56,147 nt of DNA from a virus (Duplodnaviria > Caudoviricetes): positions 1 through 56,147 of the IMG/VR virus record IMGVR_UViG_3300036760_000361. One strand, written 5' to 3'. Shown piece by piece: positions 14,651-26,466 of the stretch (within the stretch, counting starts at the first letter, position 1; each line of letters starts with the position of its first letter). The notes under the pieces were generated by a model. It made no database searches, had not been told where the DNA came from, and saw only the letters and a list, made by a program, of their open reading frames with translations. Made by a program: the position numbers and the translations under genes.

Positions 14651-14997
14651 TGATATATTTTTTGAGAAGTGAATATGTTATATTTAGATATGTTCGTTTT
14701 GGTGATAATTCCTATCCTATAATTAATCTTGATTCTATTGATAATATTTCTTTTAATGATACTATGATAGAGATTAAACTTAAGGGTGGAACTTGTATAA
14801 GATACAATGGTGAATATACAATAGAATATGAATGGAAAAATACCCCTAAAGAGGTATAAGAAAATGGTAATGACTAATTTACATAAGGATATTTTATTAA
14901 GTTATATTGAAGATATTGAGTGGGAACTAGTAAGGGAAGGGGATATTGTCAAGGCACTTGAAATATTAGATGTCTTGAAAATCTACATAAAGGAGGG

Positions 14998-15225
14998 ATG
15001 ATGAAAAGTTTATTTACATTATTGCTTTTGGTTTATTTGGGATGTATGCCATACCAAGTGTGGAATGTGCTGTCAGGTGCTATAAAGGCAGAGATAGGTA
15101 AGGATTATGCTTTATTTTATCTAACAGAAAAAGATTATTGTGATACGGCAACGGTTAGCGTGCAAACAAATGTAAAAAACAATACGGTTGAATTTTACGC
15201 TAATTGTGATAAGGTGAAGATATGA
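14998..15225 (+). CDS. Putative lipoprotein or secreted small protein
   Basis: N-terminal hydrophobic segment ending LGC. Confidence 0.5.
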   Translation: MMKSLFTLLLLVYLGCMPYQVWNVLSGAIKAEIGKDYALFYLTEKDYCDTATVSVQTNVKNNTVEFYANCDKVKI

Positions 15226-15416
15226 AAATACTTGAAACTATAACAAGACATAATATTACCTGTCCTTATTGTTACTCAAAATTCTCATTTTTAAAGGGAG
15301 ATATTTATAGAGTAACCATAGGTTGCATACGTGGAACTGTAGATGTAAATGGAATACCGTCTGATTTATATTGTCCTGTTTGTAGGGAACAAATTCCCAT
15401 TAGGGAAGAAAGGTGA
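15222..15416 (+). CDS. Zinc-ribbon protein (paralog 1)
   Basis: CPYC...SKFSFLKGDI...NGIPS-x-L-x-CPVC. Confidence 0.75.
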   Translation: MKILETITRHNITCPYCYSKFSFLKGDIYRVTIGCIRGTVDVNGIPSDLYCPVCREQIPIREER

Positions 15417-15429
15417 AGGGAGATAGGAT

Positions 15430-15618
15430 ATGGAAAACATTGAAGTAATAACAAGGTATAATGTTATTTGTCCTTCCTGTGAATCAAAGTTTTCGTTTTT
15501 AAAGGGAGACATTAACGCAATCATTGTAGACAGAGACATAAAAGAAAATGGGATACCGTCCAATCTAATTTGTCCTGTTTGTGGGCAGGTAATTCCGATA
15601 TGGGTGGAATATGAGTAA
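15430..15618 (+). CDS. Zinc-ribbon protein (paralog 2)
   Basis: CPSC...SKFSFLKGDI...NGIPS-x-L-x-CPVC. Confidence 0.75.
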   Translation: MENIEVITRYNVICPSCESKFSFLKGDINAIIVDRDIKENGIPSNLICPVCGQVIPIWVEYE

Positions 15619-22770: not shown

Positions 22771-23271
22771 ATGAGAAATAATGAATGTAGATTAGAAAAT
22801 TGTGAGAAATGTCCAAGTTTAGGAAAAACACATCTTTATTTATCCCATCCAGTTTCCATACGACACATGATAAGGGAATTTGAGCTTTATATAGAAAAAC
22901 ATAGTAATATAGAATTATTCAATCCATTCTATGATGCTGATAGAAAGGAAATAAAAGCCATAGATGCAGGTGAAGATATTAATAAAATATATAAAAACCT
23001 CAACCCAACAAAAATAGTGGAAGATGATATTAGTTATATTAACAAATGTGATGGCATAATATCTTTTCTTGGTGATGGAGACGCAAAGTCATTCGGAACT
23101 ATTTGTGAGGTATGGTATGCATTTGAAAGGAAAAAACAAATTTTTATAATCACCCATTTCCTTCAAGAACACCCTTGGGTTAAATATATTACCAAAGGAA
23201 CTAATGGTAAAATATTTTCTTGCTGGGTTGATTTTATGAAATATGCAGTAAGTGGGAAAATAGACGAATGA
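22771..23271 (+). CDS. Nucleoside 2-deoxyribosyltransferase-like protein
   Basis: YLSHP, FNP, IVEDDI..I..CD.II, SFGTICE..YA. Confidence 0.75.
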   Translation: MRNNECRLENCEKCPSLGKTHLYLSHPVSIRHMIREFELYIEKHSNIELFNPFYDADRKEIKAIDAGEDINKIYKNLNPTKIVEDDISYINKCDGIISFLGDGDAKSFGTICEVWYAFERKKQIFIITHFLQEHPWVKYITKGTNGKIFSCWVDFMKYAVSGKIDE

Positions 23272-23690
23272 TTAATCAACTTGACATTAAATATCATTTA
23301 CTTGAACTTGTAAAATTCGAAAGGTCGCTCGGAAATAATGACATTGAGTACAGGGAATGTAAGAAATGTGGTTTCCCATTTGTAACAGAAGATGATTCAG
23401 AAGAGTGTATAATATGTTCAGGTAAGATGAAACCATTACATACCGCAATGACAGCTTTATGTCCTATATGCGGATGTGAATTTGATTGTGGTGGTAAAAC
23501 AGCTTGCAGTATAAAATGCGTAAAAAAATCAAATAAACTTGGTATTAAAAGAAAAGAAAGAAGGGACATGATAGAAAAAGGATTGGTATTATCCAATAAA
23601 CCAAAAAGAAATCGTGGTGGAAGCCCAGGGTGGTCAGGCAAAGAACATCCCTGGAAATCAGTACAAAGAGGAAGTTATGAGAACATATAA
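23268..23690 (+). CDS. Multi-zinc-finger hypothetical protein
   Basis: Several CxxC pairs and CSxxC. Confidence 0.65.
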   Translation: MINQLDIKYHLLELVKFERSLGNNDIEYRECKKCGFPFVTEDDSEECIICSGKMKPLHTAMTALCPICGCEFDCGGKTACSIKCVKKSNKLGIKRKERRDMIEKGLVLSNKPKRNRGGSPGWSGKEHPWKSVQRGSYENI

Positions 23691-23941
23691 ATGCCCAAGA
23701 TGTGGAAATAAGTTCTTTAAGCCAATACTTATAGGTTATGGTAGTTATCAAGATATTTGTGTTTTGTGCGGATGGATAAATCAAGATTATATTTGGTATT
23801 GGGAATAAAAGTTATATTATAGTTCCGTGGAACAGATAGAGCTTTTTCCGAATAGTAAACTAGAAAAATGTAAGAAATGTATATGGTGGGATAGAAATTT
23901 TAAAATATGTAATAGGGAGTCTAAAGAGTGTATAAAGAAAA

Positions 23942-24385
23942 ATGAAAACAAGAAAAGTTAAAACATTAAGACAGATTTCCATAAAATGGTTAGATTTATT
24001 GTGGGGGAGAATAATACACAATCGAGACAAGGACACGTGTCAATGGTGCGGAAGGTCTTATGGTAAGGTGGATGCCCATCATATTCATGGTAGAGGGTTA
24101 TTTGTAAGATGGGATACCAGAAATGGAATTTTATTATGTTATCGTTGCCATCAGCATAGAATCCACACTGACCACGAAGGTCTTAGGAAGGTCTGTATTG
24201 AAAAAATAGGACAGAGGGTTTATGACCAATTATATTTTTTATCGCATAGGCCATATAGTAATGTAGATTTTGAACATTGGGAAAAACTATTGTTGGGTGA
24301 GATAAAAGATTTACATATTATCCCACCACCTAAACCAAAAAGACTAACCGAGCAACCTAAGTTACCACTAAGGAGTAAAAAATGA
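23942..24385 (+). CDS. HNH / NinG-like endonuclease
   Basis: RD..TCQWCG...DAHHI...RWD.RNG.LLC..CH. Confidence 0.85.
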   Translation: MKTRKVKTLRQISIKWLDLLWGRIIHNRDKDTCQWCGRSYGKVDAHHIHGRGLFVRWDTRNGILLCYRCHQHRIHTDHEGLRKVCIEKIGQRVYDQLYFLSHRPYSNVDFEHWEKLLLGEIKDLHIIPPPKPKRLTEQPKLPLRSKK

Positions 24386-24645
24386 AAGTAGTACATTGCA
24401 AAAAAGAACCATACGATATTTACATAGGAAGACCCAGTAAATGGGGAAATCCATTTTTAATAGGAAAGGACGGAAGTAGAGATGAAGTTATAGAAAAATA
24501 TAGAAAATATATTTTAAATAAACCAGAACTGATGGCGTCCTTACATGAACTAAGTGGAAAAACATTGGGTTGATGGTGCAAACCTCGTGCGTGTCATGGG
24601 GATATATTGATAGAATTAGTGGAAAATAAATCAGACAAAAAATAA
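24382..24645 (+). CDS. DUF4326 protein with an in-frame UGA (candidate selenoprotein; alternatively a pseudogene)
   Basis: VVHCKK..YDIYIGRPSKWGNPF...ELSGKTLG-[TGA 24571]-WCKPRACHGDIL...TAA; the family motif is LGCWCxPxxCHGD. Confidence 0.8.
24583..24601 (+). other. Putative bacterial SECIS hairpin
   Basis: CCUCGUG-CGUGU-CAUGGGG: 7-bp stem with two G-U pairs; loop starts 16 nt after the UGA with G at loop position 2. Confidence 0.5.
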
Positions 24646-24726
24646 AAAGAAAAAGGTAAGTAGTAAATAATAGGAGCATTACGGTATTCTGGCATCTATG
24701 AAAATCAGATATGCCCCAAAATTATA

Positions 24727-24768
24727 GGGTGAGGGGAAGCCTAAAGTCAATCCTCTCACCCATTTTAT
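24727..24768. terminator. Hairpin at the convergence of the two transcription arms (likely terminator)
   Basis: GGGTGAGGGGA...TCCTCTCACCC followed by ATTTTATT. Confidence 0.7.
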
Positions 24769-24776
24769 TATGGTTG

Positions 24777-25103
24777 TTATGGTTCTTCTGGTACTTTTTC
24801 TACTTTCAATACTTTATATTTATAGACACCTATTCCGATTTTACCTCCAGAATACGTAAAACTAACATTTACAATATGTTCTTCTTCATCATTATTTGTA
24901 TCAAGTAAGATATTTTGCTCTGGTTCTATTTCAATTGTATAAGTGGAAATTATAGGAGTAAATTTTGTGTCCTCTAAAATCACAGTTCCAGATTCAGCAT
25001 CTACAATATTATATACTCCACTTGTAGGTACAACCAATTTGCCAAGGTCATCCTTAAACTGCACATCTAAAAATGAGTTAGAACCCTGATATGCTTCTTC
25101 CAT
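24777..25103 (-). CDS. Hypothetical virion-associated protein
   Basis: GGAGG RBS; last gene of the structural arm. Confidence 0.7.
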   Translation of the reverse strand: MEEAYQGSNSFLDVQFKDDLGKLVVPTSGVYNIVDAESGTVILEDTKFTPIISTYTIEIEPEQNILLDTNNDEEEHIVNVSFTYSGGKIGIGVYKYKVLKVEKVPEEP

Positions 25104-25118
25104 AATTGCCTCCCTTGT

Positions 25119-25610
25119 TTATCCACCAGCGGTGCAAGTTAAAGCATAAGTAAATTGAATTGAATCTCCATTAGCTACATTAATTGCTGCAAACTTAGAC
25201 CTATCCCATAGCGTTCCACTTGAAGAAGCTGAGAATAAACCATGTTCTGTAACTGCATGAGCACCTGTCATTGGGATAATTGCTACTGTTGTATATACAT
25301 TATCAGTTGAGTCTTGACTGCCAGATACCCTTGATTCAATTTCAGAACCAAGAGTTGTATCACTTGTTGATTCATCTGCGGTTCCAACACCACAAGCATG
25401 ATACTTAAATGCACTGATATGGTTTGAACCACCAGCAAAATCAGCAGCCAGATAATTAACCCCAGCAGTAGTAACCACCCTTGTGCAGATAAGTCCCAGG
25501 TCTTTTACTTTGCCATCTGCCCGAATAATTTTCGCAAAAAGTTTTGACTTAAAAACCAACACATCTTCGGGATTATATCCACAAATCAGTTTCTTTAGAA
25601 ATTTAAGCAT
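25119..25610 (-). CDS. Tail-fibre-associated / virion protein
   Basis: VVTTAG...G.GT......DT.L..E...TEHGLF....G.L..R pattern seen in phage tail proteins; start probably ATG 25610. Confidence 0.65.
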   Translation of the reverse strand: MLKFLKKLICGYNPEDVLVFKSKLFAKIIRADGKVKDLGLICTRVVTTAGVNYLAADFAGGSNHISAFKYHACGVGTADESTSDTTLGSEIESRVSGSQDSTDNVYTTVAIIPMTGAHAVTEHGLFSASSSGTLWDRSKFAAINVANGDSIQFTYALTCTAGG

Positions 25611-25638
25611 TTTTACCTCCATTTTTGCCCCTATGGGG

Positions 25639-26466
25639 CTATTTCATTTTAAAATTAGCAGAAGATTCCCTTTTACTAAAATCTATTCCTGCTTTTCTTA
25701 ATAGGAATTTTACCATTGGATTTTGTAATCCAATCCATCTTCCTATTAAATATAAGAAATCTACAACCCCAGATAAGGACAATATACTATGCAATACCTT
25801 ATTTGGCATTTTCCTAATCAGTCCACTAAACTGTACAGTTCCGTAAAGAATCTTGTGATATAATATATATAATATATTTGTTACATTGCCAGTAAATGAT
25901 ATTGCAGATTGTAGTATTATATATGATTTTTTATGCACATTTCCTGTGGATTCAAGTGTTCCAAGTATATATTTTTGTATAAATCTTAGATATGAACCCG
26001 AAAACGATACCATGCTGCTGAGTTTCTTGCCAGCACCCTTAAATATGTTTCCTGAGAATGATAAGGCTGCAACCAATTCTTTAAATGTAATTCTGGTATA
26101 GGATATAATTCCAGATGTATTAAGATTACCACCTACGTTAAAATCAATAGCCTTTACTATCAACCCTAAAAATGTTAATGTTTTATTCAAAACCACATTG
26201 GTTATTCTACTTATTTCACCAGAGGATGTAAGGCTACCATATATATTCTTTAATGTTTTCTTAGTTATATCTCCAGCAAAACCAAGAGATGCTGTTAGTG
26301 TACAAAAGAATGCCTTTAGAATATCAAGTATCCCAGAAAAGGTTAACCCACCAGATATTGATTTATCTGTTTGTTTTACAATAGCACCAGATGTATCTAC
26401 ATTTCCAGATGTATTTTGCTGATATACCCCAACAAGCGTAAAAACAGTTGAGTTGTGATTAGCCAC
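25639..26466 (-). CDS. Virion protein with degenerate ~20-aa repeats
   Basis: Recurrent L-x-F-S/T-G units. Confidence 0.6.
   Translation of the reverse strand: MANHNSTVFTLVGVYQQNTSGNVDTSGAIVKQTDKSISGGLTFSGILDILKAFFCTLTASLGFAGDITKKTLKNIYGSLTSSGEISRITNVVLNKTLTFLGLIVKAIDFNVGGNLNTSGIISYTRITFKELVAALSFSGNIFKGAGKKLSSMVSFSGSYLRFIQKYILGTLESTGNVHKKSYIILQSAISFTGNVTNILYILYHKILYGTVQFSGLIRKMPNKVLHSILSLSGVVDFLYLIGRWIGLQNPMVKFLLRKAGIDFSKRESSANFKMK

Follow-up and report, generated by a model that had tools for sequence, protein, structure and literature searches.

The stretch of DNA considered here, called the window throughout, is a linear IMG/VR virus record (IMGVR_UViG_3300036760_000361, positions 1 to 56,147) of 56,147 bases with a G+C content of 34% and an estimated completeness of 74%; it is a fragment of a tailed-phage genome. 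Its plus strand carries, at 24382–24645, a gene of the DUF4326 family (Pfam PF14216) in which codon 64 is an in-frame TGA (24571–24573), and downstream of this TGA, at 24583–24601, lies a hairpin which is a candidate for an element like the selenocysteine insertion sequence (SECIS) of bacterial genes. We discuss below whether the TGA is a codon for selenocysteine (Sec), which on the whole we consider probable.

The open reading frame (ORF) 24382–24573 terminates at the TGA after 63 amino acids. Read past it, the same frame continues W-C-K-P-R-A-C-H-G-D-I-L-I-E-L-V-E-N-K-S-D-K-K to a TAA stop at 24643–24645, giving 87 sense positions including the TGA. A Shine-Dalgarno-like AAGGAG, as read from the sequence, is found on the same strand at 24370–24375, 6 nt 5' of the ATG at 24382, which is itself overlapped by the TGA stop of the upstream gene (ATGA). 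The 87-amino acid read-through product matches PF14216 with 103.6 bits (cut-off 25; E 9.1e-30) over profile positions 2–82 of 82 and contains the complete motif L-G-C-W-C-x-P-x-x-C-H-G-D, the first Cys of which is encoded by the TGA. If the TGA terminates translation, the 63-amino acid product (24382–24570) is without the C-W-C-x-P-x-x-C-H-G-D loop and the last helix. A sequence-only reading of the window had described the frame running on to 87 amino acids, the position of the UGA exactly on the first Cys of the motif and the absence of decay in the rest of the gene. The first is reproduced by translation, the third by the end-to-end match of the read-through product to PF14216, and the second by 80 viral relatives, of which 78 have Cys (TGT 54, TGC 24), two Gly (GGT) and none TGA at the aligned position. 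The following two Cys and the His are present in 80 of 80, and the downstream motif residues W, C, P, C, H, G and D vary hardly or not at all.

TGA was also said to be a normal stop in the other genes, and it does end 18 of the 68 ORFs of at least 100 amino acids (TAA 36, TAG 14). It is absent from the interior of the long genes, which reach 1769 amino acids, and the DUF4326 gene is the sole gene of the window that it splits; other in-frame TGAs, at 14828–15461, are the ordinary stops of small genes. An alternative genetic code in which TGA is sense (Trp in table 4, Gly in table 25) would suit the low G+C content of the phage and the GGT found at this position in two of the 80 relatives, but the genome-wide form of such a reassignment is ruled out in the window by these counts, and the other TGA-bearing DUF4326 loci described below translate well under table 11, the standard code. 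We regard this explanation as exceedingly improbable. Phages with genome-wide stop reassignment resemble the present case in that a stop is read as sense, and differ from it in that here a single codon in a single gene would be concerned.

A sequencing or assembly error at 24573 is another possible explanation, and the contig is of metagenomic origin. An artefact of the assembler is made less likely by the record of the identical 63-amino acid protein in both a JGI and a Logan assembly; consensus-level substitution errors are rare with short reads, and an error would leave the hairpin unexplained. This too we hold to be very improbable.

The hairpin after the UGA

The sequence-only reading had placed a 7-bp stem with the loop CGUGU 9 nt 3' of the UGA, and RNAfold returns the same structure. 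The arms occupy 24583–24589 (CCUCGUG) and 24595–24601 (CAUGGGG) on the plus strand, two of the seven pairs are G-U, and the loop (24590–24594) starts 16 nt after the UGA. In the general bacterial SECIS model the loop lies 16–37 nt after the UGA with a G within its first two positions. The geometry of the window hairpin agrees with this model, the choice of codons favours the stem, and its stability is at the level of shuffled sequences.

The codon evidence comes from a recoding test, used to remove the effect of the shared peptide, in which the 16 codons after the site were recoded synonymously by each locus's codon usage and the local folding energy was computed over 33 nt. With the codon usage of the phage, the stem length of the window was reached in 0.6% and its local energy in 1.3% of trials. 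The stem is formed by CCT-CGT-G and CAT-GGG-G, and its codons are rare in this phage, which writes Arg as CGT in 8%, Ala as GCG in 5% and Gly as GGG in 8% of cases. Elsewhere in the DUF4326 gene all three Arg codons are AGA, and of the six Gly codons five are GGA and one is GGT. The Arg at position 69 is itself unusual, being absent from the 80 closest viral relatives and present in six of 160 homologues with TGT or TGC at the site (TGY controls, defined below).

In bacterial selenoprotein genes whose SECIS lies within the ORF, fdhF of E. coli being an example, the hairpin loop is 16–23 nt after the UGA and contains G-U. The window gene resembles them in this and in having an in-frame UGA at the Cys of its homologues and a hairpin directly downstream. 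It differs in being phage-borne, in the shortness of its stem (7 bp), in being known here from sequence alone, and in having no matching Rfam family; an Rfam search gave nothing meaningful at E ≤ 10, and no informative match among cultured phages came from blastn with the TGA-hairpin stretch. Since the gene is on a phage, the hairpin has to be acceptable to the SelB of whatever host the phage infects.

TGA at the first Cys elsewhere in the family

DUF4326 is a large family, with 4422 clusters at E ≤ 0.001, and is found in 1787 of 50,697 cultured-phage records, some of which name the protein NrdA.1. The representatives of the clusters are mostly their longest members and so are not usable for counting truncated forms. 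The label 'hypothetical protein (x2)' under cultured-phage matches does not denote split genes, merely a 4-nt overlap with the upstream gene. The Cys-containing DUF4326/NrdA.1-like phage proteins share with the window protein the full-length domain and the motif, and differ from it at codon 64, which is UGA in the window rather than UGY.

Pattern scans for the DUF4326 motif with TGA at the first Cys, run over viral, metagenome and genome contigs, revealed seven true copies besides the window. The viral contigs, which hold at least 120 matches to the normal motif with a Cys codon, gave one match, L082, a true DUF4326. Ten matches came from metagenome contigs, and half of them are true: three copies (L205, L209 and L211) are intact, one (L213) runs off the end of its contig, and one (L204) is without a recognizable N-terminal part. 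The other five (L206, L207, L208, L210 and L212) are chance matches without upstream homology. Of two matches in genome contigs one, L216, is due to chance and the other, L217, is a true 3' remnant in a metagenome-assembled genome (MAG) of the Clostridiales. The TGA copies are 30–53% identical in pairs, with a locus G+C content of 26–66%. A search with the N-terminal part of L205 brought up nothing beyond the product of L205 itself and a single relative with Cys, 50% identical.

The scans of viral contigs were repeated with TGA at other motif positions as a control. None was found at the third Cys. Two matches at the Trp (L214 and L215) represent one remnant sequence without the N-terminal domain and are not a clean control. 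The single match at the second Cys (L083, 3742–3773, minus strand) reads L-G-C-W-TGA-K-P-L-P-C-H-G-D; it has no unusual downstream hairpin (recoding p 0.28–0.49) and so looks like a plain nonsense mutation.

For the hairpin itself the TGA copies were compared with 160 distinct TGY controls, drawn from the 80 viral relatives and 120 pattern matches after four with stops just upstream had been dropped. Perfectly paired stems of 7 bp or more whose loop begins 14–22 nt after the codon are present in five of six TGA copies as against seven of 160 controls; a wider loop window of 14–24 nt raises the latter figure to 12. In the recoding test on local energy p is 0.013 for the window, 0.003 for L082, 0.009 for L209, 0.010 for L211 and 0.006 for L217. 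The controls are well calibrated in this test (p ≤ 0.01 in two of 160, ≤ 0.05 in eight and ≤ 0.1 in 19; median 0.48), and TGA and TGY copies differ by Mann-Whitney tests on local energy (p 0.0008) and stem length (p 0.001). With the window excluded, four of seven TGA copies lie at p ≤ 0.01 where about 1% would be expected, a binomial probability below 1e-5. The DUF4326 copy of one viral contig, L098, has a Cys codon and yet a stem of 13 bp at the corresponding position (recoding p 0.007). It may descend from a Sec form; alternatively, strong hairpins may not be exclusive here to TGA copies.

Three of the copies, L082, L209 and L211, are only 32–48% identical to each other and range in G+C from 31 to 66%, and have in common an 8-bp stem starting 11 nt after the UGA, the spacing of the minimal fdhF element, with a loop GUC derived from the invariant Cys-His codons. 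All 24 of its 24 cells pair, and pairs 15-33 and 21-27 alternate between G-C and A-U through paired synonymous third-position changes, that is, in a compensatory manner. The observed covariation score was attained by 58 of 500 shuffles, a control that is weak because there are only three sequences. The sequence-only reading had proposed as its check a search for independent homologues that have the TGA here and a hairpin with compensatory changes. Such homologues exist: there are seven further TGA copies, and three of them have a common covarying hairpin. The same three share P-x-P-C-H-G-D-T, a Thr after the Asp/Glu being found in one of the 160 TGY controls, and their residues after the TGA are much better conserved than the remaining protein, which argues that the C-terminal part is translated.

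The stop has also been retained in the neighbourhood of L209. When the 72 residues before its TGA were used as a protein query, the best 120 of 555 matches included proteins which end exactly before the Cys, with identities to L209 of 99% (P0121), 76% (P0122), 76% (P0123), 73% (P0124), 63% (P0128) and 57% (P0187); P0123 was seen on 13 contigs and P0128 on a 13-kb contig. Among these 120 there is no truncation at any other place, and full-length Cys forms are present at 66–69% identity. In a quick maximum-likelihood tree of 167 N-terminal parts P0121–P0124 form one clade (approximate likelihood-ratio test 92) beside the Cys forms P0125–P0127; P0128, P0187 and the window protein each stand alone, and the stop label requires four changes, a number equally low in one of 500 shuffles. 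The truncated relatives are known here as proteins, L209 alone as DNA, and their stop is presumably TGA as well. In a branch of DUF4326 which has LIDRTTKWGNPF instead of YIGRPSKWGNPF, the members end exactly before the first Cys. We consider that the branch comprising L209, P0121–P0124 and P0128, together with L082 and L211, is a stronger selenoprotein candidate than the window gene, and that Sec is clearly more probable in the L209 clade than it is in the window.

The closest relatives of the window gene

A search of 5.8 billion proteins with the 63-amino acid N-terminal piece gave 2457 matches, the best 120 of which include the window's own product. Evidence from this lineage and from the hairpin itself weighs against a Sec codon in the window, and is gathered here. 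Cys occupies the TGA position in all the other 119 of these best matches, whose identity across the N-terminal 63 residues is 71% or higher, as it does in nearly all of the 80 viral relatives; UGA is kept in none of the 119, and the window lineage is without a second TGA copy. In the tree of N-terminal parts the window protein is a single stop form surrounded by Cys forms, and its hairpin is not conserved in close relatives. The stem is short, with two G-U pairs among its 7 bp, and its register differs from that of the hairpin common to L082, L209 and L211. At -8.3 kcal/mol it is no more stable than dinucleotide shuffles (-8.5 +/- 2.3; z 0.09; 102 of 200 fold equally well), and 62% of the TGY homologues (n=160) fold at least equally well over 48 nt, 17% in the 33-nt local window. 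Recoding judged by the minimum free energy of the whole region gives p = 0.34 for the window, so that its signal rests on the local hairpin only. Among the other TGA copies L205 (p 0.16), L204 (0.26) and L213 (0.49) are without a significant hairpin in the local-energy recoding test, and L204 and L217 are only 3' remnants. The hairpin window was, moreover, picked after inspection of the data, which weakens the association numbers somewhat. Lastly, broken copies are common in the family: a single in-frame TAG interrupts an otherwise intact domain in two of 114 motif-bearing copies (L121 and L147; distinct copies, drawn regardless of integrity), four more are grossly disrupted, and the C-terminus is frameshifted or odd in about 12 of the 150 top-ranking cluster representatives.

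The sequence-only reading had named in advance what would speak for a nonsense mutation, and within the window's own lineage this is what is found: the relatives have TGT or TGC, the TGA is unique to this contig and the hairpin is not conserved. A recent change of TGT or TGC to TGA at codon 64 would have left a young pseudogene with an inactive 63-amino acid fragment and a hairpin arising by coincidence from the conserved P-x-x-C-H-G codons. The frequency of disrupted DUF4326 copies, together with the TGA at the second Cys of L083, which occurs without a hairpin, means that plain nonsense at the first Cys is to be expected occasionally; a recent mutation, too, leaves the downstream frame intact, the stability of the hairpin is that of shuffles, and stems of 7 bp or longer also occur here in 12 of 160 TGY copies. 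Set against this are the size of the coincidence required, from about 1% (two of 160 controls at p ≤ 0.01) to 7.5% (12 of 160), and the composition of the hairpin, which uses three rare codons and the Arg69 that the closest viral relatives lack. Nor does nonsense explain the similar hairpins in four of the seven other TGA copies or the clade that keeps the stop, and the N-terminal branch of the window protein is not long (0.12 versus a median of 0.14, i.e. ordinary). On this evidence we think a nonsense mutation rather unlikely, and it is by far the most serious of the alternatives to Sec.

Two rare derived features, the TGA and a hairpin of rare codons, coincide in the window lineage, and the same pairing occurs in other phages. 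It is the TGA copies elsewhere with their hairpins, the compensatory pairs and the clade keeping the stop which make selenocysteine the best reading for the window. The proposal of the sequence-only reading is thus supported at the level of the family, by the TGA copies, the hairpin enrichment, the covariation and the stop-keeping clade, and finds no such support in the window's own lineage, where the relatives all have Cys, apart from the two Gly forms, and the hairpin is not conserved. Given both, we regard the window TGA as a putative selenocysteine codon, with moderate confidence.

The Gly forms are two viral contigs, L012 and L013, 69% identical to the window protein, with GGT at the first Cys, which indicates that this residue is not strictly required in every member. 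An exact scan of viral contigs around the TGA with its third base free gave no matches. In runs X2 and X3, from two studies, contigs of 4.8 and 3.6 kb match only window positions 24571–24607 (37 nt, three differences), the match starting exactly at the TGA; their flanks read as a different DUF4326 homologue, for which a degenerate scan of viral contigs gave no matches. A 13,063-nt contig of run X5 matches the start of the gene (24389–24420 and about 24568–24585 of the window), and its loose end past 24585 reads P-L-P-C-H-G-D and could, as a weak hint, form the 8-bp hairpin of L209.

Decoding, function and genome context

The MAG containing L217 is the only bacterial genome found with a TGA copy, and it encodes the machinery for Sec: selB (324.8 bits, cut-off 242), selA (555, cut-off 268) and tRNA-Sec (71.7, cut-off 47). 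L217 (5248–5279) retains about 38 codons from the 3' end of the gene; its first Cys is TGA, and the 11-bp hairpin that follows is a strong one. It lies among small genes, adjoining AAA_24 and DprA-like genes, in what looks like the early region of a prophage. As L217 is only a remnant, this link to a host gives modest support. The viral record of L082 was found to contain neither tRNA-Sec nor selD, and no tRNA gene, tRNA-Sec or SelB wing domain was found in the window.

The phage carrying neither component, SelB and Sec-tRNA(Sec) of the host would decode the UGA as selenocysteine. The 7-bp hairpin would recruit them by presenting a loop G-U from the region of the invariant Cys71 codon, and the product would be an enzyme of 87 amino acids bearing the motif U-W-C. 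If selenium or SelB were lacking, translation would end at the UGA, leaving an inactive fragment of 63 amino acids. The sequence-only reading had also suggested selenium-dependent read-through as a switch, which would be at most a speculative corollary of this. Read-through of the UGA by a near-cognate tRNA for Trp, Cys or Arg, possibly aided by the hairpin, could instead supply small amounts of the full-length protein. Of the stop codons UGA is the leakiest, a hairpin does follow it, and Gly is tolerated at the position in two of the 80 relatives; U as the fourth base, on the other hand, makes a strong termination context in E. coli, the UGA replaces Cys specifically, as is the hallmark of Sec/Cys pairs, and the one bacterial genome with a TGA copy, that of L217, has selA, selB and tRNA-Sec. 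Read-through of this kind appears improbable to us.

An AlphaFold model of the protein (predicted local distance difference test 93) puts Cys64 directly after the strand 61–63, where it opens a loop leading to the helix 72–85. The first residue after this strand is also the position of the catalytic Cys in the rhodanese/Cys-phosphatase superfamily. The likeness lies in the strand-loop-helix layout of the model, and the difference in the structural scores, which are weak: with VIA-align the best Z is 4.8, for the RapZ C-terminal domain, followed by 4.0–4.2 for NADAR/YbiA and 2.4–3.3 for dual-specificity and Cys-phosphatases. Foldseek against the PDB gave nothing at E ≤ 0.001, no solved structures were found by sequence, and NCBIfam has no model for the DUF4326 protein. 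The assignment of DUF4326 to the rhodanese/phosphatase superfamily comes from PMC9503650, which proposes a role in processing terminal phosphates on ribose in ADP-ribose derivatives. Following that proposal, Cys64 would be the catalytic nucleophile of a rhodanese/phosphatase-like active site, and a nucleophilic Cys, if such is its role, is the kind of residue that Sec replaces. In virus-host conflicts the enzyme is proposed to remove phosphates from molecules derived from ADP-ribose. With regard to precedent, rhodanese-type selenoproteins exist.

The DUF4326 gene is the final gene of the plus-strand block, which includes a helicase, an exonuclease and small early genes; the minus strand encodes the large terminase, portal/adaptor, major head protein, head-closure protein and tail proteins. 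The genes upstream of it, at 22771–24385, are matched only weakly: to a nucleoside 2-deoxyribosyltransferase at E 3e-4, which is below the cut-off, and to a zinc-finger-like and an HNH-like protein, the latter at E 2e-3. Between the convergent blocks, at 24727–24761, is an inverted repeat with 11-nt arms (GGGTGAGGGGA and TCCTCTCACCC) 13 nt apart and 91% complementary. It is possibly a two-way terminator; a consensus terminator scan did not call it. If it does terminate transcription, the DUF4326 gene would have no gene downstream on which polarity could act. The capsid and terminase are only about 40% identical to those of the nearest cultured phages, which infect various Proteobacteria, and this is too distant for a host to be named. 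A related phage in run X3 is about 91% identical over 23458–24217, and the contigs there miss the DUF4326 gene at a likeness of at least 85%. One sequencing run contains every word sampled from 23000–26000 and may be the source; among the runs matched to this region there is no RNA dataset.

Besides cellular genes, two genes of poxviruses are known to use selenocysteine insertion. The poxvirus glutathione peroxidase selenoproteins, of molluscum contagiosum and fowlpox viruses, are comparable in being virus-encoded and dependent on the Sec machinery of the host, and in fowlpox virus, according to PMC8310308, the SECIS is inside the coding region. These are captured host genes of eukaryotic viruses with a eukaryotic SECIS, whereas the window gene belongs to a phage-typical family and has a bacterial-type hairpin by its UGA. 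The earlier statement that few if any phage selenoproteins are known agrees with our search of the literature, in which neither a selenoprotein of a phage nor Sec in DUF4326 came to light (supplements not covered; DUF4326 papers judged by titles and the openings of abstracts); the main texts on BSepDB and deep-Sep mention neither phage nor DUF4326.

We tentatively suggest, with less confidence than for the window codon taken singly, that DUF4326 is a phage-borne selenoprotein family in which the catalytic Cys has been replaced by Sec repeatedly, in several lineages, the window being a recent conversion. The P-x-x-C-H-G codons may readily fold into a SelB-binding hairpin presenting the G-U of a Cys codon, and this ease of folding is proposed as the cause of the repeated replacement.

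Were the Sec reading correct, the window protein would be among the first selenoproteins seen in a bacterial virus, and phages could be said to carry selenoproteins and to rely on the SelB and selenium of their hosts, the activity of the DUF4326 gene being tied to the host's selenium supply. Gene callers would systematically shorten such genes, as in the window, where the product is recorded as 63 amino acids. It would also be a strong hint that the first Cys is the catalytic nucleophile in a very common phage family of unknown function.

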